This document shows positions 2-33,124 of a DNA stretch of 64,000 bases, in pieces. How positions within the stretch are numbered: the stretch's first letter is position 1; each line of letters opens with the position of its first letter. Under the pieces are notes generated by a model. It was not told the DNA's origin. It was given only the letters and a program-made list of their open reading frames with translations, and made no database searches. A program made the translations under genes and the position numbers. The stretch is from an uncultured virus (IMG/VR IMGVR_UViG_3300025771_003046) (lineage: Duplodnaviria > Heunggongvirae > Uroviricota > Caudoviricetes): the IMG/VR virus record IMGVR_UViG_3300025771_003046. One strand, written 5' to 3'.

Positions 2-673
2 CCATGGTTCATCTGATGATTTTCCCATCCAGTCAAATGCATATATGAAGTCACCATTTTTTAAAGATTCAGGATTATCGGGTGTACCTCGAAATCTGTT
101 AAAAGTAGTCCACCCAGCTTTTAATGGATTGTTATCATAACTTTCAAAACGCATAGCAGGTTGTTTAAAGTTTCCTGTTTGTGCAATAAGTATACCTGTG
201 CTAGTTGTGTTTATTGTTATAGGGACCGGATAACTAAAATCTGTTCCTCCGGAAAGCCACCAAGGTTTTGATTTATCACGTTGCGCCACACTATTAAGAG
301 TGTGTTCTATTATAATTCCTTTTGGTTTAATAATACCTTTAGAATTTATTGTAACAAAGTCTCCTGTTGCAACACTGTTAATAGATCCTAATAAAAGTTC
401 TGCATCTATAGTTTTTTGCCCAAAACTAGGAGTTTCACTTGCTATTGCACTTATAAATGCAGCATTTCCATAAGGTTCGCCAGCAGCGCCTGTATATGCG
501 TTAAACTTTAAAGTACCTAATTGATCTCCTTGCTGTACTATCTGGGGATTTTCATGAGTGCCGCGGGCTGCTCCAATTTTTATACTAGGTTGATTTTTCT
601 TAAACCCACTAGTAAGTCCTTTTACGAAAAGAGGTGTATTGTTACCATCTGTTTCTATAATATGTTCTATCAT
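2..673 (-). CDS. Partial tail-fibre-like protein running off the left edge; absent from the ORF track
   Basis: ATG at 673 overlaps the TGA of the 670..1326 ORF (ATGA) and the frame is open to the window edge (MIEHIIETDGNNTPLFVKG...). It has two copies of a motif typical of phage tail-fibre shafts: RGTHENPQIVQQGDQLGTLKFNAY and RGTPDNPESLKNGDFIYAFDWMG. Confidence 0.65.
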   Translation of the reverse strand, partial: MIEHIIETDGNNTPLFVKGLTSGFKKNQPSIKIGAARGTHENPQIVQQGDQLGTLKFNAYTGAAGEPYGNAAFISAIASETPSFGQKTIDAELLLGSINSVATGDFVTINSKGIIKPKGIIIEHTLNSVAQRDKSKPWWLSGGTDFSYPVPITINTTSTGILIAQTGNFKQPAMRFESYDNNPLKAGWTTFNRFRGTPDNPESLKNGDFIYAFDWMGKSSDEPW

Positions 674-1326
674 AATTCTCCCCAGACTATTATCATTCCA
701 AAACCATCTAATGCAGAAGGTTGATATTCAACATTTAAGTCTAAACCAAGATTATATAATTGTCCTTGTACTTCTTCTTTAGTAAATGCAGCATGTAAAC
801 TATTATAAAAGTCATTTTGAAAATATCTCGATTCGTTACTACTATAATATTCTACAACTTTACTCGGACTTGTTTTAGGTCTTGCTAAATCAATTACTAG
901 TACACTTGTGCCTTTTTTAGAATGATGTTTTAAGGTAATCCAAAAGTCCTTAGGATTGTGAAAATGATGCAAACTATTTACGCATACTATAAGATCATAT
1001 TTTTTATCAGTGATAAAAGGTAAATGTAAATTATGCAGTTGAATACAATGATCTAAACCGCTTTCTTCTATATTTGTTTTTGCAATATCTAGCATAGGAG
1101 ACGAACCATCAATTGCATCAATTTGACAGTATAACATTTCTGCTAGGTCTATTGTGTACTGGGCAGGCCCGCAACACAAATCTAAAACATTATTAAACGT
1201 TTTAGGACTAAAATAGTCGTCTAGTAATTTTAAAAATAATTTTCGTGTAGGAGTTTTATCTGCTTCTGCAAATGCTTTTACACTATAATCTTTAAGCATC
1301 AATTGGGGTTCTAAACGCCGCTGCAT
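670..1326 (-). CDS. Class I SAM-dependent methyltransferase
   Basis: Motif I VLDLCCGPAQ, motif II AIDGS, and YDLIVCVNSLHH. Confidence 0.9.
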   Translation of the reverse strand: MQRRLEPQLMLKDYSVKAFAEADKTPTRKLFLKLLDDYFSPKTFNNVLDLCCGPAQYTIDLAEMLYCQIDAIDGSSPMLDIAKTNIEESGLDHCIQLHNLHLPFITDKKYDLIVCVNSLHHFHNPKDFWITLKHHSKKGTSVLVIDLARPKTSPSKVVEYYSSNESRYFQNDFYNSLHAAFTKEEVQGQLYNLGLDLNVEYQPSALDGFGMIIVWGEL

Positions 1327-1928
1327 ATATTTGCACCAATCATTATTCGTTGTTCAGTTGATTTATTAGGAAGCGTTTTATGATTTAACCATCCTGGAAA
1401 TAATACAATATCACCTGTTTCTGCATTTATTTCATTTTCAAAAAGTGTATGATATGTTTCTTTATCAATGCTATAAGGTTGGTGTTTGAGTAACGTAGAT
1501 AAAGGATTTTCAAATACAAGATTACTATTGTTTAATTGTTTTTTTATATAAAAACTACAAGTTGTAACCATAGGAGAGTGATTATGTAAATCTATATGGC
1601 TATCCGTGTTGTAAATGTTAAACCACATTTCTTTTATAATAGGAATATATTTTGAATTAAATCCGCAATTTTTCCAATATTCTTTACAACTATTTGTAAT
1701 AAATTCTACTACATCAGAAAACCTTGGATCGTATTGTAAATCTCTTTTATGGACGTAAGAACATATACCATTGCCTCTCATTGATCCTTGATTGTTCTTT
1801 AATACTTGATCGAAATTCACTACTTCAAAGAGCACACTTTCTATATCTTTTATACTTTTATTGTATCTTGCTTTATATATTTTAGTTGCAAAGATGTCAA
1901 TGTCGAATGTCTCGGATTGTAGGTTCAT
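1311..1928 (-). CDS. Putative 2OG-Fe(II) oxygenase (TIGR02466-like phage family)
   Basis: WFNIY...HNH, LVFENP, GDIVLFPGWLNHK and the terminal RIMIGAN give the HxH...H...R pattern of this family. Confidence 0.85.
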   Translation of the reverse strand: MNLQSETFDIDIFATKIYKARYNKSIKDIESVLFEVVNFDQVLKNNQGSMRGNGICSYVHKRDLQYDPRFSDVVEFITNSCKEYWKNCGFNSKYIPIIKEMWFNIYNTDSHIDLHNHSPMVTTCSFYIKKQLNNSNLVFENPLSTLLKHQPYSIDKETYHTLFENEINAETGDIVLFPGWLNHKTLPNKSTEQRIMIGANICSGV

Positions 1929-1944
1929 ATAAATATTTATATGA
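1925..1944. promoter_or_regulatory. Bidirectional T4-like late promoter within a perfect 20-bp palindrome
   Basis: TCATATAAATATTTATATGA is self-complementary. It carries TATAAATA on + (1928-1935) and on - (1941-1934), between divergent genes. Confidence 0.75.
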
Positions 1945-1978
1945 CGGAAATATCTCTCTATGCTAGGATTGGCAGTTT

Positions 1979-3415
1979 ATGAGCCACGGTCTATTATTCA
2001 GTATTACAAGTTTACCAACAGTTAGGAGAATGTTAGGTCCTCATCGTGTTGCTTCTTTCTTGCGAGAACAAGAATGGGATATAGAAGTTTTAGATTTTGT
2101 AGAGCAATTTAGCATCGAAGAAATAAAAGAATACTGTGCTTTACGAATAACCTCGGCAACAAAATTTTGCGGATTTAGTGCATTTTTTGGCGTTTGGACA
2201 AAAACTTACGAGTCTATTACTACCTGGATTAAGGAAACATATCCTGATGTAAAGATAATTTGGGGTAGTCATTCTTATCCTTGGTTTGACTCTAATAGTA
2301 TAGATTACTATGTTGTAGGTTACGGAGAAAATGCAATAGTAAAACTTTTATCAAATAGCGAAGTAAAATTTGATGAAAGATTTAAAGATAAAAAAGTTGT
2401 TTCTGCATTAGATGTTTACACATCATACCCAATGAAGTCTCTTAATGTTATATACCAAGATAGAGATTTTATAGAATCCTGGGAGTGGTTAAGTATAGAA
2501 CTATCTCGTGGATGCAAATTTAAATGTAAATTTTGTAATTTTCCTATACTAGGAGTCAGAAGCGATTATAGTAGGGATGCCGAAGACTTTGGTGTGCAAC
2601 TAAAGGATGCCTACGAAAGATTTGGTGTAACTAATTATTATGTTGCTGACGAAACTTTTAATGATAGTACAGACAAATTAGAAAAATTTGCAAGTGTTGC
2701 CGATACACTAAAATTTAAACCTAGAATGCACGGATTTATAAGAGCTGATTTATTAGTAGCGCAAAAGCAACAGTGGGAACCTTTAAATAGGTTAGGGTTT
2801 TATGGCCACTACTACGGGGTTGAAACATTTAATCAAAAATCTGGTAGTAGTATTGGCAAAGGAATGCATCCTGATAAATTAAAAAATGGCTTGCTAGAAG
2901 CACGGGAATGGTTTAAGTCGAATGACACTTATCGAGGAGTAATAAGTTTAATATGCGGATTGCCACATGAAAGCATAGACTCATTTAATGCAGGAGTAGA
3001 TTGGTGCTACGATAATTGGAAGGGAGAAAATACAACTATATTTTCTTTAGATATTCCTACTGACGATAAGGATGTAAAATTGTCGTACATATCTCTTAAC
3101 TATGAAAAATTAGGCTATAGAGAAGCAACAGTACCTTATCATAAAAATATAGAACAAAACTTTGGGTACGGTCGATCTTTACTAAATTGGGAAAACGATT
3201 ATATGAATTTAGAAACTGCCGATGAAATTGTTAGTATAGCAAATAAAAGAATTTCATCAGTAAATGGTATAAATATGTGGCAGTTCGGAGATTACGGATT
3301 AGTTACAGATGATCTAAATAAGATATCAAAATTAAATAAAAGTTCTAACCCTAGTCCGAATAGAGAATTAGAATCATTTTACGAAAGATATAAACGGAAT
3401 AAAATAAACTTATGA
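1979..3415 (+). CDS. B12-binding-domain radical SAM protein, paralog 1
   Basis: ELSRGCKFKCKFC (CxxxCxxC), ADETFN, GVETFN; the N-terminal domain (GPHRVASFLR...IIWGSH...VGYGE) resembles the cobalamin-binding domain of class B radical SAM enzymes. Confidence 0.85.
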   Translation: MSHGLLFSITSLPTVRRMLGPHRVASFLREQEWDIEVLDFVEQFSIEEIKEYCALRITSATKFCGFSAFFGVWTKTYESITTWIKETYPDVKIIWGSHSYPWFDSNSIDYYVVGYGENAIVKLLSNSEVKFDERFKDKKVVSALDVYTSYPMKSLNVIYQDRDFIESWEWLSIELSRGCKFKCKFCNFPILGVRSDYSRDAEDFGVQLKDAYERFGVTNYYVADETFNDSTDKLEKFASVADTLKFKPRMHGFIRADLLVAQKQQWEPLNRLGFYGHYYGVETFNQKSGSSIGKGMHPDKLKNGLLEAREWFKSNDTYRGVISLICGLPHESIDSFNAGVDWCYDNWKGENTTIFSLDIPTDDKDVKLSYISLNYEKLGYREATVPYHKNIEQNFGYGRSLLNWENDYMNLETADEIVSIANKRISSVNGINMWQFGDYGLVTDDLNKISKLNKSSNPSPNRELESFYERYKRNKINL

Positions 3416-4893
3416 ATAAATGTATAATTTTTAGCGTTCATCGTGCCGGAACACATCGTCCTTTAGGTCCTCATAGAATATGTACATTTCTAAGACAAGA
3501 AGGATGGGATGCAGAAGTTGTAGATTATTCTTACTATTTTACTTTAGACGAACTAAAAAGTTTAGTTGAAAATAGAATGGACGAAAACATAAAGTTTTTT
3601 GGTTTCGGAGCATGGTTCGGAACATGGCCCGATGAAATAGTAACATTTACAGTATGGCTTAAAGAAACTTACCCGCACATTCCTTTAGTATATGGTAGTA
3701 TGTCTTCTCCTCACACAAGAGAATCACCTATAGATTATTATAGTGTAGGATACGGCGAAGAGTCTATATTAGAAATTGTAAAGGACATTTTAGGAAAACC
3801 ATGTAATTTAAAATTTTCTCCTAGATGGAAAGGCAAAGAAGTTATTGACGCTAATGAAGACTATCCTGCATGGCCTAGGAAGACGTATGCAGCATACTAC
3901 GAAGATAGAGACTTTTTAGAGGAATGGGAATGGCTTACTATAGAGTTGTCAAGAGGTTGTAAATTTAAATGTCAATTCTGTAATTTTCCCATTCTAGGTA
4001 TTAAAGAAGATCATAGTATAAGTGCAGAAAATTTTAGAAAACAAATTGAAGATGCTTATAATAGATTTGGCATTACGAATTATTACATTGCTGACGAAAC
4101 AATAAATCAAGATAAAGAAATGATGAGAAAGTTTGCAAATGTTGCAAACACTTGGGATTTTAAATTACAAGCACATGGATTTATGCGAGCTGATTTAATG
4201 ATTGCACAACCCGATACTTGGCAAATGATGGTTGATACTGGAATTACCGGTCATCATTATGGCATAGAAACTTTTAATCGAAAGTCAGGTGCTACTATAG
4301 GTAAAGGAATGAAAACTGAAAAATTACAAGAAGGCTTAATAAAAATTAAAGATTATTTTAGGGCTAATAGTATTTATAGAGGTCATATTAGTATGATTGT
4401 TGGACTACCGTATGAATCTAAAGAAACTTTTTGGAAAGGTGTAGACTGGTTAAAAGAGAATTGGGCAGGTGAATTCTCTGCATTTAACAGACTAGAAATT
4501 CCTTTACCTACTGGTGATGCAAAGCCGAGTTTATTTACACGAAGTTGGAAGGATATGGGTTACCGAGATAGAAAGACAAAGTTACAAAGCGGAACTGAAC
4601 AAAAGAAGTTACTGACTATGGGCGGTGGTATGTTTACTGAAGACTTGTTAGACTGGGAAAATGATTATATGGATATAGAATGGGCTATATGGGCAATGGG
4701 GGAAGCATACCGTGTTTTAAAACCCACAAACGGTGTAGGTTCTTGGCACTTTAGCGATTATAGTTTACTTTTGAAAAATGATAATAGGGCTATATCTAAA
4801 ATAATAAAATCAGATTTACACCATAACCAAAACGGTGTTGTTGATGCATTTTACGAAAGATATAAAAAGAAAAAAATAGCCTGGGGAACATAA
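3412..4893 (+). CDS. B12-binding-domain radical SAM protein, paralog 2
   Basis: ELSRGCKFKCQFC; colinear with paralog 1; ATGA-like overlap at the start. Confidence 0.85.
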   Translation: MNKCIIFSVHRAGTHRPLGPHRICTFLRQEGWDAEVVDYSYYFTLDELKSLVENRMDENIKFFGFGAWFGTWPDEIVTFTVWLKETYPHIPLVYGSMSSPHTRESPIDYYSVGYGEESILEIVKDILGKPCNLKFSPRWKGKEVIDANEDYPAWPRKTYAAYYEDRDFLEEWEWLTIELSRGCKFKCQFCNFPILGIKEDHSISAENFRKQIEDAYNRFGITNYYIADETINQDKEMMRKFANVANTWDFKLQAHGFMRADLMIAQPDTWQMMVDTGITGHHYGIETFNRKSGATIGKGMKTEKLQEGLIKIKDYFRANSIYRGHISMIVGLPYESKETFWKGVDWLKENWAGEFSAFNRLEIPLPTGDAKPSLFTRSWKDMGYRDRKTKLQSGTEQKKLLTMGGGMFTEDLLDWENDYMDIEWAIWAMGEAYRVLKPTNGVGSWHFSDYSLLLKNDNRAISKIIKSDLHHNQNGVVDAFYERYKKKKIAWGT

Positions 4894-6347
4894 TGGACCA
4901 TGCATTAATATTCGGTGTACACGATATGATGCCCCATCGATTCCTAGGACCGCATCGTATTGCACATTACCTTAGGAATAATGGATGGGATATAGAAGTT
5001 GTAGACTTTGCTAGTTTTTGGACTTTAGAACAACTAAAAAATTTTATTAAATCACGAATACATAAAAAAACAAAGTTTATAGGATTTGGGTGTTGGTTTG
5101 GTAACTGGCCAGAGAATATAGATATGTTATCACATTGGATCAAAGATTATTATCCAGAAATAAAAATTATTTACGGCAGTCATACATATCCTAAATTTAA
5201 TAACGAATCAATAGATTATTATACTGTAGGTTATGCAGAAAAAGCAATAATACAATTAGCTAATTATTTTCAAAACAACGGAACTATCAAGTTTGACACA
5301 AGATGGGAAAATAAAAAAATTATTCTTGCTAATGACACTTACCCTGCATTTCCGATGAACGAACTAGGTGTTATATACGAACATAGAGATCTTATAGAAC
5401 CTTGGGAGTGGCTTACCATAGAATTTACAAGAGGTTGTAAATTTTCCTGCAAATTTTGCAATTATCCTATATTAGGCGTAAAAGACGATCACTCAACTGC
5501 TGCTTCTGACTTTGAGTACACTGTTAGAGATGCTTATGATAAATTTGGTGTGACAAATTATTATACAGCAGACGAAACATTAAATCAAGATAAATCTATG
5601 ATAGAAAAATATGCAAATGTAGCTGATACATTAAATTTTAAATTAAGAATGCACGGATTTATGAGAGCAGATTTATTAATTGCTAATAAAGATACATGGG
5701 ATCCATTGTCTCGGTTAGGTGTATTTGGGCATATGTATGGTATAGAAACGTTTAATAAAAAAACTGGCTCTAGTGTAGGGAAAGGAATGGATCCATTAAA
5801 AGTAAAAGAAGGCTTACTCGAAATACGAGAATGGTTTGATGCAATAGAACCATATCGAGGCAATATTAATATGGTGTGTGGATTACCGTTTGAAACTAAA
5901 GAAACTTGGGAAAGTGGCATTGAATGGCTTATGAAAAATTGGACATCTAAAGGAGACATAAGTGCTACTTATGCATTAGAAATACCGTTAAGTAGTATGG
6001 ATTCAAAATTAAGTTTTATAAGTAATAATTGGAAAGCATTAGGATACAGAAGAAGAAAAACACCTTCTGAATCTTTACATGCTGTGAGTTCTCTAAAATA
6101 TGCTGACGAATTATTAGATTGGGAAAATGATTACATGGATCTTGACTGGGCAGTAAAAAGTTGTAATACAATATATAAACAGTATAAAGTTGATATGGGC
6201 GTTAGTGTTTGGCACTGGGGAGATCATGGATTAATGAATTTAAGTTTTAAAGATCTTCAAAAAAAACAAAAACATTATAATCAATGGCCTAACAAAGAAC
6301 TGGAAGATTTTTTACAACGCTATATTAAAAAGAAAATAGAATTATGA
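4893..6347 (+). CDS. B12-binding-domain radical SAM protein, paralog 3
   Basis: EFTRGCKFSCKFC; colinear with paralogs 1 and 2; TAATG overlap. Confidence 0.85.
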   Translation: MDHALIFGVHDMMPHRFLGPHRIAHYLRNNGWDIEVVDFASFWTLEQLKNFIKSRIHKKTKFIGFGCWFGNWPENIDMLSHWIKDYYPEIKIIYGSHTYPKFNNESIDYYTVGYAEKAIIQLANYFQNNGTIKFDTRWENKKIILANDTYPAFPMNELGVIYEHRDLIEPWEWLTIEFTRGCKFSCKFCNYPILGVKDDHSTAASDFEYTVRDAYDKFGVTNYYTADETLNQDKSMIEKYANVADTLNFKLRMHGFMRADLLIANKDTWDPLSRLGVFGHMYGIETFNKKTGSSVGKGMDPLKVKEGLLEIREWFDAIEPYRGNINMVCGLPFETKETWESGIEWLMKNWTSKGDISATYALEIPLSSMDSKLSFISNNWKALGYRRRKTPSESLHAVSSLKYADELLDWENDYMDLDWAVKSCNTIYKQYKVDMGVSVWHWGDHGLMNLSFKDLQKKQKHYNQWPNKELEDFLQRYIKKKIEL

Positions 6348-7414
6348 GTATATATACAAACTGGGATCCTTTAGAATTATGTATTGTTGGAAATTGTCTA
6401 ACTGAAGTGCCAGACACTTGGAGTATCGATCCTAAGGCAAAACCATTATTAGAAAAAATATTAAAAGAAACAAAAGAAGACTTAGACAATTTAGCAGCAC
6501 TAATTTCATCATTTAACACAAAAGTTTTGAGACCAACACCTAAAATATTTCCACAAAAGTCTAATTTACATAATTTTAGTATTTTAAACGCAACTAATCC
6601 TATTGTCCCGAGAGATCAATATTTTGTATACGATAAAACTATATATCAAACATACACTAGTTTACCAGATAGGTACTTTGACGGATTTAATTACTATAGC
6701 CTATTTAAAGATTTGTTTAAGCAAGGGCATAATTGGTTAAGTCTTCCGCCGCCGATTTTAAACAATCTAAATAATAACGAAAAATGGTATCTAGACGGGC
6801 AGGACATTTACCATAATCGTTTAAACTACACATTATTATGGCATACTGCTACAATGTTTAAAGCAGGCAAAGATATTATTGTAAATAATCAAGGTCCGGG
6901 CACTCAGTTAGGGTTAGAATGGATAAAACGTAACGTTGATGCTGAATTTATACACAATGAAGATACATATGTCGATAGTTGGGGTCATATAGATCACGGA
7001 TTTTACATGCCTAACGATAACACTGTAATATGTATGGACGAACATTGGGTTCCGCAATGCCTACGTAATAAAGAATTAATATTACTAGATGGATTATTTG
7101 AAAGATTCGATTATAAAAATTTTATAGAAGAAACTAACAATAAAGTAGATCCGTTTTCTTATAATTGGTTAGAAGATTGGTTTGATCAATGGACAGGATA
7201 TTGTCAAGAAGTAGCGTTTGAAGCAAATGTTTTAGTAGTAGATCCAAATAATATTATATTTGCAACCGAACAGCCAGAAGTGTTTGCTAAATTAGGAGAA
7301 TATAATATTAACTGTCACGTAAGTAAACTACGTCACGGAATGTTTTGGGCAGGAGGAATACATTGTATGACATTAGATATTAAACGTAGTGGTCTAAAGC
7401 GTTGCGTAATCTAG
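6344..7414 (+). CDS. Pentein-family amidinotransferase (glycine/inosamine-phosphate amidinotransferase-like)
   Basis: NWDPLELCIVG, PRD, GHID and the C-terminal GGIHCMTLDIKR with catalytic Cys. Confidence 0.85.
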   Translation: MSIYTNWDPLELCIVGNCLTEVPDTWSIDPKAKPLLEKILKETKEDLDNLAALISSFNTKVLRPTPKIFPQKSNLHNFSILNATNPIVPRDQYFVYDKTIYQTYTSLPDRYFDGFNYYSLFKDLFKQGHNWLSLPPPILNNLNNNEKWYLDGQDIYHNRLNYTLLWHTATMFKAGKDIIVNNQGPGTQLGLEWIKRNVDAEFIHNEDTYVDSWGHIDHGFYMPNDNTVICMDEHWVPQCLRNKELILLDGLFERFDYKNFIEETNNKVDPFSYNWLEDWFDQWTGYCQEVAFEANVLVVDPNNIIFATEQPEVFAKLGEYNINCHVSKLRHGMFWAGGIHCMTLDIKRSGLKRCVI

Positions 7415-8591: not shown

Positions 8592-8608
8592 ATATAATAT
8601 CTCCAACG

Positions 8609-8624: not shown

Positions 8625-8630
8625 CTGTTG

Positions 8631-11725: not shown

Positions 11726-11731
11726 CCATAA

Positions 11732-24684: not shown

Positions 24685-25387
24685 AATATTTTCCTAAATG
24701 ACTATGTATGTGTTCTGCTACTACTCTGTGACCATCGACTGAAAAATGTGAATCATCTATAGGATAATTTGGTAAGTCTAATAATCTATATTTATTAGTT
24801 GAAATATATCGACATAAATCAATGTTGTAATGAATGTTATCAAATGTCATCATGGTTTTACTTTCATCAGGCACTTCGTCTGCATCGTACAGAATCCACA
24901 ATACATCAATTTTTTTGTTTTGTAGATATACAGTATATAAGTCAATATTTTTCATAAGGGTATTGAATTCGACTGTTCTGTTGTAAAAATATTTTTGATA
25001 CAAGGTGTAGTATCGCTTGATATTTTTATCGTCAATTTCTAAATTGTTAACTGTAACAAAATCTTCTATTTGATTTGAGTAAATCATTATACGTGGCAAC
25101 AGAGTTGTTTGCATAGTAACTAGAATATTGCTACCATCCTTAATATCTTTTGTGTGCTCATATACGTTCTTAAAAATTAAATCGTTCGATGCTCTTGGAA
25201 CTCCGTGATTTTCTACTTCACAATTTAGCATTTTTGCTAGTTGTGTAGGATATGCATTGGCATACATATAATTTCCATATTCATTAGGAGGATGCTTTTT
25301 TAACCACCTATGATACTCTGGTGAATTAAGGCCTGCGCCTTGTGTAAAACTACAACCAAAAGATAAAAGTTTATCGTATTGTTTCAT
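24677..25387 (-). CDS. SGNH/GDSL-like protein, paralog 3
   Basis: SFGCSFTQG, NHGVPRASN, DDSHFSVDGH. Confidence 0.62.
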   Translation of the reverse strand: MKQYDKLLSFGCSFTQGAGLNSPEYHRWLKKHPPNEYGNYMYANAYPTQLAKMLNCEVENHGVPRASNDLIFKNVYEHTKDIKDGSNILVTMQTTLLPRIMIYSNQIEDFVTVNNLEIDDKNIKRYYTLYQKYFYNRTVEFNTLMKNIDLYTVYLQNKKIDVLWILYDADEVPDESKTMMTFDNIHYNIDLCRYISTNKYRLLDLPNYPIDDSHFSVDGHRVVAEHIHSHLGKYYD

Positions 25388-25914
25388 CTATCTCTTTCTT
25401 GTAAAATAGGATCTGTTGTAGGCCACTCTATTCTAAATCGAGGATCGTTCCACTTAATAACACCTTGATTCTTTTCGTCTACATAGTCGCCTTCGTAGAA
25501 CATATTATAATGGAATATACAATCTGTTAGTGCATAGTGACCGTTAGCGTACCCAGGAGGTATTAAAACTTGATCTCTAGTCTTTTCTGATAGTATATAA
25601 GATTCCCACTTACCTGTTTTAAGATCAAGAACAACTAAATAGATATCACCTACAAGAGCTTGTACAAGTTTATAAGTCTTATCATCATAATGCAAGCCTC
25701 TTAATACACCTTTGTAAGACTTACTAAATCTTCCGTGAACTTCGCTGTCTTTAGAAATAATTTCTGTTACAGGATGGTCGCTAGAATGATAAGTTGTAAA
25801 AATTTCTCCTCTGTATTCACGATATACAGAAGGTTTATAAATTGGAACTTGTTTGCCAAACGTATTAAGATGCGAAACTATCCATTCGTTCCATTTTTGA
25901 TTTTTATAGCTCAT
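25384..25914 (-). CDS. rmlC: dTDP-4-dehydrorhamnose 3,5-epimerase-like protein
   Basis: RGEIF, KGVLRGLHY, KLV, VLDL, IPPGYANG, IKWNDP..IEWP. Confidence 0.88.
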   Translation of the reverse strand: MSYKNQKWNEWIVSHLNTFGKQVPIYKPSVYREYRGEIFTTYHSSDHPVTEIISKDSEVHGRFSKSYKGVLRGLHYDDKTYKLVQALVGDIYLVVLDLKTGKWESYILSEKTRDQVLIPPGYANGHYALTDCIFHYNMFYEGDYVDEKNQGVIKWNDPRFRIEWPTTDPILQERDR

Positions 25915-27280
25915 TTGCTTTTGCTTCCAAGAAATTTACAAAGTCTTTAGTTAAAGGCTCTGACTCGTAAATCTTTATTAAGTGCTCTCTATTGTGTTCT
26001 AAAATATCTTGCATTTCCCAATACCATGTATATATTTCATCTTCGGACATTTCGCATAATCGTTTGACTTCTGAAACTATCATTTTTAAACGCTTGTGTG
26101 CAACTTTTTCATTATCATACGACTCGTCTATCCAAGGACTAAAAGTTTTAAATCCTAAATCTCTTAAATGCTGTAATGCACCCTTGAAAGAAAAGAAAAA
26201 GAAAGGATGATAGTTTCCTATCGGTTTAAAAACTTTTTCAGTTAATGATTTATGATCTCCATGATAGTATGTTTCTGTGCATATATAAAAATAACTATTT
26301 CTATAAGGTTCTCGTGTTCGATCAGTCCATGCACTTACAGTATTCATAGTAGTATCGGGCTCGTCGGCAAGTTTTTTTGGAAATAAATTAACCAATGACT
26401 CTGTTTCGACATCGTAATCTAAACTCCATTCAATCTTAACATGTTTTAACATTTGATCATTTAGCGAGGTTTTTTCAGATAGATAACTCCAATCACCGCG
26501 ATCTAAAATTTGTTCACAATATAAAGAATACAGAAGTGCTTGTCGATGATTTCTAGGACTTTTTATTTTCATTAAAAATCTAAAAGGACGTTTTCTACTT
26601 TTTTCTAACTCTGAATCCCATCGACCAGTTTTTGAATAATATTTACTACTGTTCCACATAACAAACGGCCAATCACGCACTTGAATCTTTCGTTCATGGG
26701 GTTCAAACCATTCATCGTATATCTTATGGCCATTATGTGTATTAAACACTAAAATAATTTGACTCGGTGGAATATAGGACGATTCTAAACATTTATGTAA
26801 ATTTTCATATTCATGTTTTTCGATATAATTTTCCTGAGCTAAATCTAGAATTATAGTACATTTTTTGTTTTGAGCATCTTCTAATGCTTCTTGCGACATA
26901 TACTTCCAAAAATAATTACCATTAAGTTTTGAAAATTGCCTAACTCCATGTGCTGCAAACTGATCTAAATGAGGACTTATCTTAACAACATAAAAATAAT
27001 GACTACACTTTTGTTTTCCTTCGAATAATGAAGTATGTTTTATACTAGTTACTTCTTCTAAAGCATTTAAATTTGTTACTGTCCAACTGTTAGGCCAGTC
27101 TCCTAACTGATTATTAAATATCTGTCTACTAATATTAGATTCGCTAGGGTCAGTATAGGCGTTAAATCCGTTGCTTATATTATGTTGAGAGTGCATGTAA
27201 TTCAACACAGCATGATTACTTTCTAAAGCATTAGGTAAAAAATATCCCGGAAAAACATAGTCATATAAAAAGTATATCAT
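25904..27280 (-). CDS. Putative glycosyltransferase (paralog of the 22741 ORF)
   Basis: FLMKIK.PRNHR, YFYICTET...TEKVFKPI..YHPF...LGFKTFSPWIDESY; ATGA-coupled start at 27280. Confidence 0.55.
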   Translation of the reverse strand: MIYFLYDYVFPGYFLPNALESNHAVLNYMHSQHNISNGFNAYTDPSESNISRQIFNNQLGDWPNSWTVTNLNALEEVTSIKHTSLFEGKQKCSHYFYVVKISPHLDQFAAHGVRQFSKLNGNYFWKYMSQEALEDAQNKKCTIILDLAQENYIEKHEYENLHKCLESSYIPPSQIILVFNTHNGHKIYDEWFEPHERKIQVRDWPFVMWNSSKYYSKTGRWDSELEKSRKRPFRFLMKIKSPRNHRQALLYSLYCEQILDRGDWSYLSEKTSLNDQMLKHVKIEWSLDYDVETESLVNLFPKKLADEPDTTMNTVSAWTDRTREPYRNSYFYICTETYYHGDHKSLTEKVFKPIGNYHPFFFFSFKGALQHLRDLGFKTFSPWIDESYDNEKVAHKRLKMIVSEVKRLCEMSEDEIYTWYWEMQDILEHNREHLIKIYESEPLTKDFVNFLEAKANEL

Positions 27281-28668
27281 ATAGTATTTTTCCATTTATG
27301 ATATTCTTCTTCCATTTCAGGAAACGTTTTAAGAAAATTAGTTCCACGTCTTCTATCATGCTCATCAACAAATCTAATTAAATTTTTTCTATGATTAATT
27401 ACATGGGGTTTTGTTTCGTGTTCTTCGTCGATGTATGTTGTTATTTCATATATACGTCTAAACTTTTCGGCTTCCCAATTAAAGAATTTCCTATTAGCTG
27501 ATTCGTACCAGCCGTTGTTTTCTATGTTATCGTATACTAAAGAAACCTGATCATATATATATCTTCTAAACTTTGCAGGCATAATATCAACTGCTTGATA
27601 TCCAGGATGTCTCAAATAAGGAACATCAAGTATCATAGGCATGTGCTTAGCCTGCCAACCGCCGTATGTATCTTTAATTTCTAATATATCTTTAATAAGA
27701 TTTTTAAAACTAAACAAACTTAAAAAGTTATATGTTGCCATATTAGTAAATGTACAATTTGGAACTTCAGTTAATACTTTGTTTATATTATCTAACCATT
27801 TGTTGTAGTCTAGTCCGTGTCTAATGTATTCTGCTTGTGCTCCTGTAGCTTCAGCACTTGTAAATATTTTAAATTTCTTAACCTTGCCTTCGCTACAGAT
27901 TATTTTAATTTTTTCCATAAAGCGATTAAACACTCCGTCTGGAACACACATATTACTGTTGACAGCAAACTCTAGGTCTGGTCTAGGATTTTCTATAAGA
28001 TCGTCTAGTACTCGAAATGTATCTTTAGAAAGTAATGGCTCGCCGCCTGTAATACGGAAATGTTTGAGATCCTTTGATACATCGGGCCACCATTTCCAAA
28101 ATGCTTCTACATAAGGATTGTAATCTTTATTTGGAATAGGCATAACACCTTGATCTTTAAGCCAATCAATACCGCCATGCGCAGTTGTAGTTGGATACGG
28201 TCCGTATTTCTGAACTTCTTCCATCCATTTACTACTAACTTGTGGTGAACAGTATGAGCATTTGAAATTACACACACTACTAAAACTTACTTCTAAATAA
28301 CTAGGATTAACATTATCATCCCAAGGTTTTTGAATAATTTCTGGAATATAAGATTCAGCCCAGGGTTCTTTGGACTTATATGTTCTATCACTTATTTCGT
28401 TATTGTCTTCTACACGCCAACAATAGTCACACTCTTTAGGCCTATCACCTTCGAGCATTTGCTTACGTTGTAACTTCTTAAATTTTGTATTATGTAATGC
28501 ACTAGAATTACCTTCTAATTCTTCAACAGGTATTTTGTGAGGTACTGGATGATGACAACTATGCGTCTGTCCGGTATGTAGGTGTAGTGTAACTTGTTTC
28601 CACTTAGCTACACAAAAACTGCAACTAACAGGATCTAGATTTTCTTTTTTCCATACTTCAGGTGTCAT
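27277..28668 (-). CDS. Radical SAM protein with N-terminal Twitch-like Cys cluster
   Basis: FCVAKW...SCHH...ECDYCW precede VCNFKCSYC and ITGGEPLL; GAGGA before ATG 28668. Confidence 0.9.
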   Translation of the reverse strand: MTPEVWKKENLDPVSCSFCVAKWKQVTLHLHTGQTHSCHHPVPHKIPVEELEGNSSALHNTKFKKLQRKQMLEGDRPKECDYCWRVEDNNEISDRTYKSKEPWAESYIPEIIQKPWDDNVNPSYLEVSFSSVCNFKCSYCSPQVSSKWMEEVQKYGPYPTTTAHGGIDWLKDQGVMPIPNKDYNPYVEAFWKWWPDVSKDLKHFRITGGEPLLSKDTFRVLDDLIENPRPDLEFAVNSNMCVPDGVFNRFMEKIKIICSEGKVKKFKIFTSAEATGAQAEYIRHGLDYNKWLDNINKVLTEVPNCTFTNMATYNFLSLFSFKNLIKDILEIKDTYGGWQAKHMPMILDVPYLRHPGYQAVDIMPAKFRRYIYDQVSLVYDNIENNGWYESANRKFFNWEAEKFRRIYEITTYIDEEHETKPHVINHRKNLIRFVDEHDRRRGTNFLKTFPEMEEEYHKWKNTI

Positions 28669-29587
28669 TATTATCCTCAATTAAAAATGGTTCTTTGTTT
28701 ATTCTTTTTGGCACTTGATAAACTGTTTTAAAAAATTTACTTTGTTGATCACTTAGTGGAGATATTGATATCGGAATATTTAATTCTTTTATCAAAGTTT
28801 TACCTAAATCCTGTATTGTAGACATTAGTGTTTCATCAGTAACTTCTAATTGGTTCCAAAAATTATTCAAATACGAAAAGTCACGTACATTTATAAAGTT
28901 CCAGTCTGTACACATTGTCATATACAACCCCTGTCTTGCACCAAATATCGCCCATAGTCCGTTTTCTACATCTGCACCGATCATTTGCCAAATATAAAGT
29001 CTATGTAAATTTTGCCAATATCCGTCATACAGTTTACTTGTATCAGGCTTCATTCCCTGATCAAGTGACATCTTAACACCTTCACGAAAACCAGCACGCC
29101 ATGCTTGCTGTGGAGTTGCATTATTATACACATCACTAAAAGTAGTATTCATTTGGATATAGCGCATGTCCCAACAAAAGTCAACTTGACCTTGCGGATT
29201 TCCTGGTTCAGCATTTTCATGTGTACGCATATTGAGAACATAACTCTTTGGCCAACATTTAAGTCCGCCATTTCCATATACTAATCCGTTTATAACATTT
29301 TTTCCACACCAGCTAACAACACTATGATCTAACTGTGCTTCAGGTTTAAAATTTATAATTTGTTGTATATAATTAGCATATACTATATTGTCAGCATCTA
29401 CAGTTATAAATCTATCAGTTTCGCTTAATTCTGCGCAAGCCTTGTGTGCAGCATCCGAGCCTTCTACTCCGTGGACACGTTTAGCCCATGGTATTTTACT
29501 ACACAAGTCTGCATAGTTTTTTTCTGCGTTGGGCTCGTCGTAACTTAAAAAGATAACATCATAGTCTGCTACTTTAATTGAATTCAT
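28658..29587 (-). CDS. Putative GT-A fold glycosyltransferase
   Basis: YDVIFLSYDEPNA, GSDAAH, ITVDAD (DxD), YGNGGLK, AGFREGVK. Confidence 0.7.
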   Translation of the reverse strand: MNSIKVADYDVIFLSYDEPNAEKNYADLCSKIPWAKRVHGVEGSDAAHKACAELSETDRFITVDADNIVYANYIQQIINFKPEAQLDHSVVSWCGKNVINGLVYGNGGLKCWPKSYVLNMRTHENAEPGNPQGQVDFCWDMRYIQMNTTFSDVYNNATPQQAWRAGFREGVKMSLDQGMKPDTSKLYDGYWQNLHRLYIWQMIGADVENGLWAIFGARQGLYMTMCTDWNFINVRDFSYLNNFWNQLEVTDETLMSTIQDLGKTLIKELNIPISISPLSDQQSKFFKTVYQVPKRINKEPFLIEDNNDT

Positions 29588-30471
29588 TTTACTACCTCAT
29601 ATCTATAATTACGATAAAGTCGTGGTGTAAATATCGAAAGATTTTCTTCTTCTGATTTGTACATGTACGGAAATATGCACTTTGTCTTGTCTATTAAATC
29701 TTTAATTGGTATTTCAATAGTCCGAATTAGTATGTTAGGATCATCGGGCTCAGTGATAAAAAACATAACAACCTTATCAGTAATTTCCTTGTCTAACAAT
29801 TTTTCATTTACAACAATATCTTTAGTGCTATAAAATTGCCATTGTTTTGCAATATCATTTTTAAAAATATATACACTAGTGTCATCAGACGAATTTATCA
29901 TATACAACTGATTGTCAACTAAAACTTTATGTCCTTTTCTATTTTTTCGTGCCATTAAAGGAATAGATTTTTTATCTACTGATACTATATTTTCAAGAAA
30001 TAGTTCAGCAGTGTCTAACGTATCTTCAACAGTAAAATCTTTATGAAGTTTGTATACATTATTATTAGCCCAAACGTGATCGCCTTTATAAAACAAATCA
30101 GTTGCGTTATGTTTTCTAAAATCTATACCAACGTATATCTTTTCTAGGTTGTCAAATGTATTACCTTTAAATGGAATTTGATAAAGGTAATCTTCAACTG
30201 ATTTTAAAAAACTAGTTGCAACCTCTCTAGCGATTACGTATTCTCTAAGTTGATGATTATATTTTACTACATATTCGCTAATTTTTGCTCTACCTAAAAA
30301 ATATTCTTTTACTTCGTCATGATTAACTTCAATAACATCATAATCGCTATCTATAGGGTTATTTGTAATGTCAAAGACTTCGCCATGTGTTTTTTCAAAA
30401 TACACATAACTTATATCTCCTTGTGCTATTAAACTGTTTAATTTTGTTATTGCATTAATTAAATTAGACAT
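29584..30471 (-). CDS. Hypothetical protein carrying one CBM5/12-like module
   Basis: Internal YVGIDF...FYKGDHVWANNNVYK...GHKVLVDNQLY unit, shared with the insert in the 30464 ORF. Confidence 0.55.
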   Translation of the reverse strand: MSNLINAITKLNSLIAQGDISYVYFEKTHGEVFDITNNPIDSDYDVIEVNHDEVKEYFLGRAKISEYVVKYNHQLREYVIAREVATSFLKSVEDYLYQIPFKGNTFDNLEKIYVGIDFRKHNATDLFYKGDHVWANNNVYKLHKDFTVEDTLDTAELFLENIVSVDKKSIPLMARKNRKGHKVLVDNQLYMINSSDDTSVYIFKNDIAKQWQFYSTKDIVVNEKLLDKEITDKVVMFFITEPDDPNILIRTIEIPIKDLIDKTKCIFPYMYKSEEENLSIFTPRLYRNYRYEVVK

Positions 30472-31897
30472 AAGTTATTTCCTTGTATTTGTTAAATACT
30501 TTTTCGACAAAGTCTTTTTCGGTATAATGCAATATACCATTTTGTACAAAATTTCCTAACTTTAAATTACAATTGTCATCTAAATATACGCCTAATTTAT
30601 CTTGCCACCTATCTGGCGGATTGTTCCAGCCTTGTATCATCGGCTTTAAGTGTGTAAATGTAAGAATATTGTTTTTCTTATTTGTAACTTCTTCTTCTAT
30701 ATTAAGTATTTTTATTGCAATTGCTGCTGCGACATCTATACTCAAATGTCCGGGTGTTTGATTAGGTAGAAACTCTTTCCAAAACTCTTTCCAATTCTTA
30801 CAAATAATTTCTAGTAAATTATAAAAGTTTTTTGCTAGATCTGATTGTTTAAAATAATGTACCCCAACGTATGTGTTAGGCAAATAGTTTTCGGTAAATG
30901 TCTTTCGGTAAAAATCATTTTCAATTACGTTATTATTAAATGTTCTTACTTCAGATGTAAAGAATAAATCTGAATCACTTAACATATTCCACGTACTAGT
31001 AAGATCATTAAACACCATCATATCAGTGTCCATTACAATTGTTTCATCATACGGACTACAGTGATAGATTTTCCATCTATTTTCAACTTTCCAAATAGTT
31101 GTTTCAGCATCATCACCAAAGGGAATAGGAATAATTTTGTCAAACAATATCTCATAATCTGCAGGAACAATATCGTTAGTAATAATTGATATTTTTTCAT
31201 TAGGACTATTTTTACTTAGAGACAGTGCTAATAACACAGCCTGTTTAACATAGTCTACTTGTAGTACAGGATCAACTGTATATAAATTATTATAATAACA
31301 CACTAAATTGCCCGGCCGTGGGTTTTCGAATACTAAACTTTTGTTACTGTCTGCATACAATTTAACTTCTTGATCAATAATAGGCTCGTAATCGTCTTCA
31401 GTAAACTCACTATTTGCTGGTACGTCAACTAAAGCACGCCACACTCTGTTATTATGCCAAACATGTTGACCTGCTAAATGTAAAACTTCTTTATACCAAA
31501 TATCAATGTTAACTCCTTCAAATTGAGGAGTCAGTGTATATAATTGTGTTTCATCTTCTTTACGCACTTCGTAAATATTATTATCAGATAATACAATATT
31601 ATTCTTTTTACACAAGTGATGTACAACAAGATCGTTTTTGTCATAGTGTATATAGACTTCAGGTATTACTAATTTTACATCATCATAATTAAATGTTTTA
31701 GACTGTAAACAAGTATTAACAAATCTAAAGACTTTATTATCATACCAAACATGCTGACCAGATATATAGTCGAGATCCGGATACCATATATCTACATGAA
31801 TACCTCTGTATTGCTCTTCGAGGAAATGATTAGGTATTTGTCTCGATACTCTTTCATAACTATTTTGTGCTAAAACTATTATACCTCTATTGCTCAT
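30464..31897 (-). CDS. GT8-like glycosyltransferase with an inserted tandem repeat
   Basis: DYVKQA, FDKIIP, SPYDETIVMDTDM (DxD), HLKP; about 200-aa insert relative to the 31887 ORF. Confidence 0.7.
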   Translation of the reverse strand: MSNRGIIVLAQNSYERVSRQIPNHFLEEQYRGIHVDIWYPDLDYISGQHVWYDNKVFRFVNTCLQSKTFNYDDVKLVIPEVYIHYDKNDLVVHHLCKKNNIVLSDNNIYEVRKEDETQLYTLTPQFEGVNIDIWYKEVLHLAGQHVWHNNRVWRALVDVPANSEFTEDDYEPIIDQEVKLYADSNKSLVFENPRPGNLVCYYNNLYTVDPVLQVDYVKQAVLLALSLSKNSPNEKISIITNDIVPADYEILFDKIIPIPFGDDAETTIWKVENRWKIYHCSPYDETIVMDTDMMVFNDLTSTWNMLSDSDLFFTSEVRTFNNNVIENDFYRKTFTENYLPNTYVGVHYFKQSDLAKNFYNLLEIICKNWKEFWKEFLPNQTPGHLSIDVAAAIAIKILNIEEEVTNKKNNILTFTHLKPMIQGWNNPPDRWQDKLGVYLDDNCNLKLGNFVQNGILHYTEKDFVEKVFNKYKEITYV

Positions 31898-32729
31898 TAA
31901 TTACTCTTTCTAGACTAAATTTATTCATTATATGAACACTTTTTCCTTTAGTACTTAATGCTAGATATTCTCCTAAGTATTTTGGTCGTTCAACCAAAAA
32001 TTGCATATAATCATCATTAATTTCTAAACATATATCTTTATCAATTGTATAATAATGCGTACCTGGTAATTCTTGTACACAACTATCAAGTCCATCAAAA
32101 CCATTAAGAATATGTGCTGCAATACTAAATGCAAAGTCATTTCTAAATAACGGAGAGTCAATTTGATACACTCGCCTGTAATGAGGCCAATTATCTTGTA
32201 TGTGTGAAATTAGATCAAAGAATATTTTATTTGATTCAGTCTTTGTAAAATATACTACAGTTGCCCAATAAAAATCAACACCACACTCACTTATGTACTT
32301 AAACTCTGCTTCACTACGTGTTCCTGATAAATCTTTTGCATTTTTAAACATCATTAAATCATATTGACTGTCAAAACAGGATTTAAATAAATCATTAGAA
32401 ATAATATAATCTGTATCTAATAACAATGTGCTATCGTATGGAGATAGATCATATGCTTGTGCTCTGCCTGCATTTTTAAAAGGAAGTTTTTTGTGTGTTA
32501 AAGTACCATCAAAGTAAAATCTATTATTCTGGACAACTTCCCATGCTGTAGGAATAATCTTATCAAATATTCCTCGGTCAAAACTTTCTACTAAGTAGTC
32601 TGGAGAATCAGTAACTATACTAGTAGGAATATTTAAATACTTCTGTATACGTTTTGCTAAAAATTGTGCTTGATTTACATAATCAAGCGATCCGTTATTT
32701 CTTGCAAATAGTAATGCGCCTTTAGTCAT
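31887..32729 (-). CDS. GT8-like glycosyltransferase
   Basis: DYVNQA, FDKIIP, SPYDSTLLLDTDY, FRNDFAFSIA, HIMNK. Confidence 0.7.
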   Translation of the reverse strand: MTKGALLFARNNGSLDYVNQAQFLAKRIQKYLNIPTSIVTDSPDYLVESFDRGIFDKIIPTAWEVVQNNRFYFDGTLTHKKLPFKNAGRAQAYDLSPYDSTLLLDTDYIISNDLFKSCFDSQYDLMMFKNAKDLSGTRSEAEFKYISECGVDFYWATVVYFTKTESNKIFFDLISHIQDNWPHYRRVYQIDSPLFRNDFAFSIAAHILNGFDGLDSCVQELPGTHYYTIDKDICLEINDDYMQFLVERPKYLGEYLALSTKGKSVHIMNKFSLERVINEQ

Positions 32730-33075
32730 TTTCTATTAATTTTTCTACCGAACGTTTTTTACCCAATGCTACATAACTGTTATGATAATCGTTAGAAGCT
32801 TCAAAGTAAATATCTAAAATATCTTCTAAAAACTTAGACAAGTCTGGTATCATTACTGGACGATCGTTGTCATCAGTCAAAACAACGTCAGTATCTGCAC
32901 CTTGCTTTACTAGTAAATCTATAAATGTAATTAACTCTCGTGTAATAGTAAACTGAGAACCTTCAGTAAAATATATTAAACTTTCTTTAAACTTTTCTTG
33001 AAGAATACGTTTTTGATTATTGATCGTAACCATATACTTGCTAAAGTCAAGGGCTTTTTCTAATCTTTCGTCCAT
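32722..33075 (-). CDS. Hypothetical protein, possibly a tail-fibre assembly chaperone
   Basis: AGGAGG SD before ATG 33075 (MDERLEKAL...); small acidic helical protein right after the tail genes. Function inferred from position only. Confidence 0.5.
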   Translation of the reverse strand: MDERLEKALDFSKYMVTINNQKRILQEKFKESLIYFTEGSQFTITRELITFIDLLVKQGADTDVVLTDDNDRPVMIPDLSKFLEDILDIYFEASNDYHNSYVALGKKRSVEKLIEND

Positions 33076-33095
33076 ACTACCTCCTGTTAGTGTTA

Positions 33096-33124
33096 AGTAT
33101 AACACAGATTGTTTAGTAAGTCAA
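33096..33124 (-). promoter_or_regulatory. Sigma70-type promoter
   Basis: Minus strand TTGACT-17 nt-TATACT with a TG extended -10, followed by AGGAGG and ATG. Confidence 0.8.

Follow-up and report, generated by a model that had tools for sequence, protein, structure and literature searches.

A fibre-bounded island of sugar-building and radical SAM enzymes, with a conserved core and exchangeable cargo, in an uncultured jumbo myophage

The window analysed here is a 64,000-nucleotide stretch of the uncultured virus IMGVR_UViG_3300025771_003046 (bases 15530-79529 of an 88,136-base virus record, ~24% complete according to CheckV; GC ~32%), with genes for three tail-fibre paralogs, a 4723-aa virion protein and the wedge and hub of the baseplate in its right half (Pfam, PHROG). 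Next to these structural genes, an original prediction had placed a block of about 36 contiguous open reading frames (ORFs) at 670..33124, devoted to building sugars and decorating proteins with them. Annotating the ORFs with Pfam, NCBIfam, PHROGs and PDB sequence searches, and the unnamed ones by profiles, folds and motifs, we recovered this block, with 35 non-nested ORFs (>=80 aa) between 670 and 33105, and found that it is larger than described: an island of about 54.4 kb, bounded by fibre genes and made of soluble enzymes, which continues to the left of the predicted border. Its architecture is clear, with conserved head and tail pieces around exchangeable cargo and with two promoter classes. 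The proposed enzyme logic, i.e. donor synthesis, transfer, and tailoring by radical S-adenosylmethionine (SAM), methyl, amino and amidino chemistry, is supported by family, fold and profile evidence.

The genes of the island are tightly packed, 27 of 30 same-strand neighbour pairs overlapping or abutting, and 22 of the 35 ORFs matched Pfam at E<=0.01, leaving 13 unnamed. None of the 35 holds a 19-residue stretch with a Kyte-Doolittle mean >=1.6, i.e. a candidate membrane helix, and the Pfam and NCBIfam scans matched no flippase, polymerase, ligase, polyprenyl-phosphate transferase or ABC exporter family. Since GC content (32.2% in the island, 33.4% in the structural genes) and codon usage (codon-frequency r 0.91) are close to those of the structural genes, the island appears native to the phage. 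On its right it is flanked, as predicted, by three tail-fibre paralogs with common N-termini (35132-40947, minus strand; PHROG tail-fibre families, one with Pfam Collar at 4.1e-15). The fibre gene expected on the left did not hold up in the window, where the ORF at 2-673 matched nothing in Pfam, PHROG or PDB sequence searches, and position 670 is no border. Further left, in sequence extended by a second record of this phage (127,599 bases, 99.97% identity across 21.4 kb; ~33% complete, about a third of the genome), the island continues for ~21 kb. Here it carries six further radical SAM genes (two of the N-twitch type), which brings their number to 14, together with a nitroreductase, a QueC-like ORF and 6-7 tandem paralogs of ~180 aa that bear an HxD...H...R dioxygenase-type motif. 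A fibre-type gene does close the island there: ~21-23 kb to the left of base 1 stands an ORF of 485 aa that encodes an Mtd_N (major tropism determinant) domain. After it come a sulfotransferase-like ORF and one of the fatty-acid-desaturase family (127,599-base record, segment 18001-37500, local 11746-15248); hydroxylation and then sulfation of tail-collar proteins were predicted for bacterial operons by Iyer et al., in the part available of PMC2938197.

Within the window, the island is dominated by a right-hand operon of 24 translationally coupled genes running leftward on the minus strand from 33075 to 13369, in which 15 swappable cargo genes (15614-27295) lie between the conserved head and tail. 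The head comprises a small adaptor-like protein, two GT8-like glycosyltransferases, a GT-A transferase and an N-twitch radical SAM enzyme. The first core gene, O127 (32722-33075), encodes a small acidic helical protein; its true start is the ATG at 33075, after AGGAGG, and its stop overlaps the start of N280 (31887-32729), a GT8-like (glycogenin-like) transferase. L295, a repeat protein, and M477, which joins N-terminal W..Y..G..V.Y repeats to a GT8-like C-terminal domain recognised by the N280 profile, occupy 29584-31897, and are followed by K309 (28658-29587), a GT-A-fold transferase with a helical C-terminal domain, and by the N-twitch radical SAM enzyme (27277-28680), the hallmark of the core. 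We considered O127 as a glycosylated acceptor peptide and rejected it, the protein being helical and without invariant Ser, Thr or Cys. Likewise, M477 was rejected as a dioxygenase-transferase fusion (Pfam 2OG-Fe_Oxy_2, E 0.07), its N-terminal part being the tandem repeat also found in L295. We take these repeats to resemble carbohydrate-binding CBM5/12 repeats. The conserved tail is formed by E229 (14935-15624), a GT-A paralog of K309 (K309 profile 1.6e-37) that is 44% identical to RsoM2USA_348 of the Ralstonia phage RsoM2USA, by a radical SAM enzyme (13968-14984; Radical_SAM, synteny), and by the methyltransferase-like D200 (13369-13971; 27.5% identical to RsoM2USA_347, motif by eye). Just right of the operon lie P320 and Q328 (33142-35120, minus strand), paralogous Ser/Thr-rich proteins that accompany fibres and core in relatives and are candidate acceptors; neither matched Pfam, and their profile found no match among PDB sequences.

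The predicted linkage of the block with fibre genes is conserved across phages. We compared RsoM2USA, a cultured jumbo phage, and 80 IMG/VR loci, out of at least 632 IMG/VR stretches encoding a relative; six near-identical loci were set aside and 74 counted. The recurrent order is fibres, P320/Q328, O127, N280, M477, sometimes L295, K309, N-twitch radical SAM enzyme, variable genes, E229, D200 and radical SAM enzyme. In RsoM2USA the core directly follows the fibre genes, its head and tail contiguous and with zero cargo. Among the loci whose upstream DNA reaches 1.5 kb or more, K309 adjoins the N-twitch gene in 45 of 68; where it reaches 5 kb, K309 and N280 are both present in 41 of 60; and where it reaches 8 kb, 34 of 52 have a homolog of the window's fibre-region proteins upstream. 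The cargo region differs between relatives, with a sub-cassette of SDR (short-chain dehydrogenase/reductase), RmlC, E1-alpha and I437-type ORFs plus a radical SAM gene recurring in four viral loci (L069, L074, L077, L080), partially in L076, and with a J463- or I437-type ORF in two genome-bin loci (L099, L124). For the loci without this core, 74 of 146 listed ORFs were Pfam-scanned, in six loci. A second, unrelated transferase cassette was present in four of the six (L065, L072, L074, L079), made of DUF6734, Methyltransf_24, GT2 and two or three GT7-like/concanavalin-like lectin fusions, then the same radical SAM family; an S74 fibre lies ahead of it in two of these four, and a tail sheath gene downstream in L072. 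In the remaining two loci, the radical SAM gene has DNA ligase and ClpP genes as neighbours, and no fibre gene is visible. The link to fibres is therefore strong but not universal. With tblastn, no cyanophage record matched K309, N280 or the N-twitch enzyme; RsoM2USA was the sole phage record for K309 and N280, and the radical SAM query returned three records, one of them full-length. Phages of Synechococcus or Prochlorococcus account for 26 of the 35 phage records in which the heptose-type module of the cargo is present. In large T4-like cyanophages its kinase is 34-38% identical to that of the island, and in one of these, P-SSM2 (NC_006883), the module sits between two annotated tail-fibre genes.

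The cargo contains the whole predicted donor-synthesis set, recovered by Pfam, PHROG and NCBIfam. The nucleotide-sugar module (15614-17358) encodes a HAD phosphatase, a cupin, a PfkB/RfaE-I-like kinase and an RfaE-II-like nucleotidyltransferase (PHROG 6.7e-27, 3.7e-39, 3.9e-65 and 2.6e-42). Its HldE-type domains score under the equivalog cut-offs (TIGR02198, 99.6 vs 345; TIGR02199, 92.9 vs 181.5), which makes them relatives and not equivalogs, and no SIS-family hit that would denote an SIS-type GmhA was obtained among the window ORFs (Pfam, NCBIfam), a 119-aa cupin standing in the module instead. Upstream follow the E1-beta-like (transketolase pyrimidine-binding) half of a split thiamine pyrophosphate (TPP) enzyme (17355-17876; Pfam Transket_pyr 8.6e-7), an SGNH-like ORF (17866-18783, GCSxTxG by eye, no PDB match) with an unknown 151-aa ORF (together 17866-19207), an SDR nucleotide-sugar epimerase/dehydratase (19204-20136; Pfam Epimerase 1.7e-32), a 366-aa ORF (20142-21242) and an HpnJ-like B12-binding radical SAM enzyme (21239-22741; TIGR03471 1.9e-39, under cut-off). 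Beyond them lie I437 (22741-24054), the E1-alpha-like TPP-binding half (24055-24684; Pfam E1_dh 4.2e-12; TIGR03182 2.9e-23, under cut-off), a second SGNH-like ORF (24677-25387; Lipase_GDSL 0.0025, weak; GCSxTxG block), an RmlC-like 3,5-epimerase (25384-25914; dTDP_sugar_isom 2.6e-28) and J463 (25904-27295), all on the minus strand. Both halves of the split enzyme match one family, phrog_34187. In a 92%-identical relative (L056), 860 bp carrying the second SGNH-like gene (window 24621-25481) are replaced by 153 unrelated bases, a single-gene presence/absence difference within the operon.

Seven transferases of three types had been proposed. Pfam names no transferase family in any of the seven ORFs, even at E<=5; six are backed by folds or profiles and the seventh is a weak lead, so the count is a fair one resting on evidence of uneven strength. 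The AlphaFold2 (AF2) model of K309 (pLDDT 88.4) shows a GT-A domain and a helical domain. Foldseek returned ten rows at E<=0.001, led by SunS (6.3e-5; SunS/ThuS range 6e-5 to 2e-4) and including PBCV-1 A64R (5.6e-4), i.e. peptide S-glycosyltransferases (SunS, ThuS) and a capsid transferase (A64R), and VIA gave Z 10.2 with a root-mean-square deviation of 3.3 for 138 residues aligned over residues 4-177, and 136 chains at Z>=8. Residues D64 and D66, a DxD metal/nucleotide-sugar motif, are invariant in 21 sequences, and E229 has DGD at residue 58; the K309 profile obtained no hit against PDB sequences. The N280 profile matched glycogenin weakly (E 0.0063, 19.5 bits, query positions 16-120 only) and M477 at 1.2e-21 (residues 213-407). 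D105 and D107 are invariant in 22 sequences of the N280 family, M477 has DTD at 290, and neither protein gave a Pfam Glyco_transf_8 hit. I437 is a probable GT-B-fold transferase. Its AF2 model is of low confidence (pLDDT 62.2, residues 1-105 under 50), with no Foldseek row at E<=0.001 (best 6.6e-3), and nearly all of its 50 VIA rows (Z 9.7-7.8) are GT-B transferases. J463, its paralog (2.8e-30), probably has the same fold by kinship with this model. The seventh candidate, the 366-aa ORF, is a lead towards a GT10-like transferase, the nearest named Atlas clusters being GT10 at 0.80-0.81; for it and for the SGNH-like ORF at 17866-18783, nothing usable was found against PDB sequences, nor any hhalign signal against the I437 family.

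The N-twitch radical SAM family (NF033640, N_Twi_rSAM) is represented in the island by three copies above its 170-bit cut-off, at 27277-28680 (336.6 bits) and left of the window (396.2 and 326.1), the two latter paralogs with Pfam SPASM at the N-terminus. The enzyme at 27277-28680 carries its CxxxCxxC motif as CNFKCSYC at 137-144 and invariant N-terminal cysteines C23, C42, C84 and C87. By profile, its nearest solved relatives are MoaA (2.4e-5) and BlsE (3.4e-3), both distant; a sugar substrate is mildly favoured over a peptide because these two act on nucleotides or nucleoside sugars. We found no function test of this family in print. Compared with the family at large, the island copy is embedded in a glycan cassette. 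In cellular genomes, 62 of 79 N-twitch loci are titled as Bdellovibrionota-type predators; the genes are often in tandem (seven in a row at L108), and Pfam transferases adjoin them in 7 of 25 scanned loci. At one such locus (L139) the N-twitch gene, surrounded by GT2 genes, comes after an S74 fibre that has a signal peptide, and at another (L153) it lies beside two flagellin genes. These links are suggestive anecdotes and make no rule; the available part of the Bdellovibrio fibre paper (PMC10769870) mentions neither glycosylation nor radical SAM enzymes.

The left-hand units of the island (670-13387) face both orientations, possess their own promoters and have almost no recurrence in the 80 related loci. 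On the minus strand lie a SAM methyltransferase (670-1326; Pfam Methyltransf_25 3.5e-14) and a 2-oxoglutarate (2OG)-Fe(II) oxygenase of TIGR02466 type (1311-1928; 2OG-FeII_Oxy_5 4.4e-15; TIGR02466 70.9 bits vs a cut-off of 62.5), as well as a class III pyridoxal-phosphate aminotransferase (7380-8618; Pfam Aminotran_3 7.5e-42). The plus strand carries three tandem paralogous B12-binding radical SAM enzymes (1979-6347; Pfam Radical_SAM and B12-binding; mutual identity 44-49%), which are candidate C-methyltransferases and have weak PhpK/ladderane-type NCBIfam hits far under cut-offs. They are followed by an amidinotransferase (6344-7414) without Pfam hit, identified by phmmer against PDB (HsvA 9e-23, StrB1 4.7e-18, AGAT 1.9e-15, SxtG 9.7e-13). 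Further along the same strand are a KedN5-like B12 radical SAM C-methyltransferase (8628-10550; NF033712 2.7e-45, with 154.7 bits vs a cut-off of 700), a radical SAM enzyme whose N-terminus bears a zinc ribbon (10547-11725; Zn_ribbon_HMPTM 1.8e-13), an SGNH-like ORF (11744-12613; GCSxTxG block by eye) and an HxD...H oxygenase-like ORF (12716-13387; motif by eye), the last two without family hit and each with its own TATAAATA box. The predicted aminotransferase and amidinotransferase were thus both recovered, as were the eight radical SAM ORFs of the window (1979-3415, 3412-4893, 4893-6347, 8628-10550, 10547-11725, 13968-14984, 21239-22741 and 27277-28680), five over the Pfam cut-off and three backed by NCBIfam or paralogy. 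The predicted pairs of methyltransferases and oxygenases were each borne out by family models for one member (670-1326 and 1311-1928) and by eye for the other (13369-13971 and 12716-13387), and the three SGNH-like ORFs have their GCSxTxG block in common, with a single, weak Pfam hit among them.

Two promoter classes serve these units. The motif ATAAATA has 17 copies in the 64 kb (both strands), seven of which are found on the coding strand no more than 80 nt before a start, vs 0.48 expected. Four of these seven precede island units (1979, 1928, 11744, 12716) and three precede structural genes (the baseplate wedge gene, the ORF at 41561 and one fibre gene). Back-to-back TATAAATA boxes in the divergent gap at 1928-1941 are late-type promoter candidates for the units at 1928 (minus strand) and 1979 (plus strand), and further boxes lie at 11732 and 12682 on the plus strand; being rarer overall than chance (10 copies vs 18.4 expected), TATAAATA is informative by position alone. 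Late boxes common to island units and structural genes had been predicted, and this is true of the left units and fails for the right-hand operon, which has no ATAAATA box before it. The phage encodes a gp55-like late sigma factor, which fits the ATAAATA late boxes; its gene lies right of the baseplate genes (phrog_12791, 7.6e-81; 88,136-base record, segment 79000-88136, local 6256-7104). The core is instead preceded by a sigma-70-type promoter candidate, TTGACT-N17-TATACT with TG (33096-33124, minus strand). Scans for sigma-70-type sites and terminators over 13000-42000 gave counts at chance level, and only the site before O127 gains weight, because it is conserved: among 22 distinct related sequences, a sigma-70-type site precedes the O127 ortholog in 13 (background 0.5% per 120 nt), TATAAATA does so in 4, and 5 have neither. 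In T4-type phages, such sites are read early by the host sigma-70 holoenzyme, and by this analogy the core is likely transcribed early and by that enzyme. Among RNA-library contigs at least 99% alike, for which DNA carry-over is possible, the fibres are covered in four of four runs and K309 with part of the radical SAM gene in three of four. Run X18 covers only 33007-41000 and nothing of 21001-33006, and coverage of N280 and M477 is poor throughout the four runs; such gaps carry no weight as evidence.

The source is, judging from its genes, an uncultured jumbo myophage of Rak2/Atu_ph07-like type. The wedge protein of its baseplate shares 33-35% identity with its counterparts in jumbo myophages including Atu_ph07, PA5oct and the Rak2-like phages, and matches 113 records, every one below 60% identity, and a megablast of 14000-34000 against phage records returned no match and thus no close cultured relative. 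Between the fibre genes and the baseplate wedge gene, a single 4723-aa ORF (41587-55758, minus strand) belongs to the virion structural family phrog_10938 (1097 bits). A small second sugar set close to the DNA polymerase gene comprises phosphomannomutase-like, UDP-glucose/GDP-mannose dehydrogenase-like, epimerase and weak GT61-like ORFs (127,599-base record, segment 1-19000, local 9692-16602). GTP cyclohydrolase I and a weak radical SAM ORF (segment 18001-37500, local 1077-3462) and the QueC-like ORF (88,136-base record, 3257-3928) are also encoded, with which the phage may make a 7-deazaguanine-type DNA or tRNA base. Window 27300-37000 recurs in 14 DNA runs (13 coded studies), each of which contains at least 97% of its sampled words; their labels are seawater, marine, estuary, marsh, salt marsh and freshwater, and some of the runs may be the source sample.

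From this gene content, with its synteny, promoter motifs and folds, we infer a chemistry, an order of steps and an acceptor, and tentatively favour, at somewhat less than even confidence, a pathway that would attach sugars, in the cytoplasm, to the fibre-region proteins of the phage itself and then edit the glycan by radical SAM, methyl, amino and amidino chemistry. The kinase, nucleotidyltransferase, phosphatase and cupin module would supply a heptose-type nucleoside-diphosphate sugar, the SDR and RmlC-like enzymes would perform 4-keto and epimerisation chemistry, and the split E1-like TPP enzyme would add a two-carbon branch. Precedents for such donor chemistry exist in bacterial O-antigen and antibiotic pathways for branched sugars and heptoses, which employ RmlC, SDR, E1-like TPP two-carbon branching and HldE/GmhB. 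Three GT-B-like transferases and the SGNH-like esterases would work on the growing glycan, to which the left late-promoter units could then bring C-methylation (B12 radical SAM), amination, amidination, methylation and hydroxylation. Since no membrane step is encoded, the glycan would be assembled in the cytoplasm on a soluble acceptor, most likely the fibre proteins encoded next door.

Several points weigh against fibre glycosylation. The matches of K309 to protein-directed transferases have low TM scores (~0.3), and nucleotidyltransferases have its fold as well (Z 9.4). The N-twitch family stands away from fibres in two of six scanned phage loci and in most bacterial loci, with S74-like ORFs within 10 kb in only 3 of 79 cellular loci and no Pfam transferase nearby in 18 of the 25 scanned. 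The sigma-70-type promoter before the core weakens the argument for co-expression of core and fibres, and both product and acceptor were assigned from the genes alone. Peripheral lipopolysaccharide (LPS) transferases are without membrane helices too, and heptose and GT8 are classically LPS-linked. In the available text of PMC7029224, the fibre region of such phages is called a hypervariable hotspot, and the position beside the fibres may reflect permissive insertion rather than function. The accessible parts of PMC7029224 and PMC12801897 read similar phage gene sets in favour of host-surface modification.

That published opinion favours our main rival, an unlikely but serious one, in which the soluble transferases, working at the cytoplasmic face, would modify the host's LPS core or its lipid-linked O-antigen or capsule units, with the host's export machinery displaying the product; masking the fibres' receptor would then block superinfection and keep progeny from sticking to infected cells. 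Remodelling of the envelope accords with the early-like core promoter, with the module's resemblance to ADP-heptose synthesis, with the peripheral transferases just mentioned and with co-variation with fibres, equally expected if the target is the fibres' receptor; GT8 is moreover called an LPS-type family in the available part of PMC7029224. It fits poorly with the absence of any membrane-step, export or ligation gene among the matches and with a core common to phages of hosts with unlike envelopes (RsoM2USA of Ralstonia, aquatic uncultured phages). The best K309 fold rows are peptide- or capsid-directed enzymes, and the late-type boxes of the left units would come late for surface remodelling. 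An early-like promoter would also suit hypermodification of the phage DNA with edited sugars, evading host restriction, a reading that we consider highly improbable. The I437 model does align to the T4 beta- and alpha-glucosyltransferases (Z 9.5-9.2) and the same phage has GTP cyclohydrolase I and QueC-like genes, but dozens of other GT-B enzymes reach equal Z with this model of pLDDT 62, the island lies among fibre genes in many lineages, and no thymidylate-synthase-like hydroxymethylase (PF00303) was found in the 127.6-kb record, only about a third of the genome.

Quite unlikely, in our view, is an unattached, diffusible or intracellular small glycoside, aminoglycoside- or pseudo-oligosaccharide-like, directed against competitors or host defences. 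The amidinotransferase nearest HsvA and StrB1, the class III aminotransferase, the KedN5/AprD4/PhpK-type B12 radical SAM hits and the E1-like TPP pair would fit it; the same three gene kinds are called 'antibiotic synthesis genes' in the part available of a cyanophage paper (PMC12801897), and secondary metabolites were proposed for cyanophage dioxygenase arrays by Iyer et al. (PMC2938197, available part). Yet the Pfam and NCBIfam scans found no scaffold enzyme (cyclitol synthase, nonribosomal peptide synthetase, polyketide synthase), exporter or self-resistance gene, the NCBIfam natural-product hits are all far under cut-offs, seven transferase-like proteins are many for one small molecule, and the conserved position behind fibres would be left unexplained. 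Finally, the island could be a mosaic hotspot where independent modules with different targets (fibres, host glycans, tRNA, DNA) gathered because insertions are tolerated, as suggested by its variable middle, the single-gene indel between 92%-identical phages, the non-recurrent, bidirectional left units with their own promoters, and the QueC-like ORF and nitroreductase of the left extension. We hold this to be very unlikely given the coupled neighbours (27 of 30), the recurrence of the SDR/RmlC/E1-alpha/I437-type sub-cassette with a radical SAM gene, and the same conserved head and tail bracketing the cargo in many loci, which argues that the cargo serves the core.

Islands of comparable design are known. 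The host recognition cluster (HRC) of pelagimyophages and cyanomyophages is described, in the available part of Zaragoza-Solas et al. 2020 (PMC7029224), as a hypervariable island with tail fibres, glycosyltransferases (GT8), rfaE and radical SAM cassettes, placed between VrlC and the gp14 neck gene in T4-like genomes. The island studied here, hypervariable, lying in the structural region and combining fibres, transferases and radical SAM cassettes, resembles such clusters in these features. It differs in its host phage, which is Rak2/Atu_ph07-like and jumbo and not a T4-like pelagiphage, in its length (~54 kb vs an HRC mean of 44.6 kb in the accessible text of PMC7029224), and in its 14 radical SAM genes and natural-product-type tailoring; its conserved core and promoter are not described for the HRC in the portion available of that paper. 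Other sources, likewise available in part, report 13 transferases, RmlC, epimerases, an amidinotransferase and a radical SAM enzyme in cyanophage S-SCSM2R (PMC12801897), and tandem dioxygenases in cyanophages as early as 2010 (PMC2938197). For RsoM2USA, the available part of PMC8504454 leaves the core genes unannotated and applies virion mass spectrometry to abundant gel bands only.

The same enzyme families as in the cargo occur in bacterial branched-sugar and heptose pathways, from which the island is distinguished by scores far under the equivalog cut-offs, by a cupin in place of GmhA and by the lack of membrane and export genes. Freeman et al. reportedly described, in 2023, glycans on mycobacteriophage capsids and tail tubes. 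To our knowledge, the glycosylation systems of chloroviruses and mycobacteriophages have no radical SAM tailoring and far fewer genes. PBCV-1 A64R (PDB 2p6w) resembles K309 in being a soluble virus-encoded transferase, in its case for structural proteins, with an identity of 11-15%, the comparison resting here on genes only. What sets the island apart is its size, a cargo for heptose, branching and amidino steps, and the presence of two promoter classes.

Published work has listed sugar and 'LPS' genes next to the fibres of large aquatic phages since at least 2020, with their role only guessed, and we found no function test of such fibre-linked sugar islands in print. A broader and rather unlikely extension of fibre glycosylation would be that phages of several lineages and Bdellovibrionota share a toolkit for editing adhesin glycans (N-twitch radical SAM enzyme and novel GT-A), which in this phage might place a heptose-derived, C-branched, C-methylated, amidino-bearing glycan on tail fibres, the swappable cargo acting as a second, non-protein layer of specificity, for host range and for defence evasion. 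Whether fibres are glycosylated is testable, because the cultured phage RsoM2USA carries the bare core. If fibre decoration were true, the host recognition of abundant environmental phages would have a glycan layer ignored by sequence-based host prediction, and the island would provide novel radical SAM chemistry on sugars.

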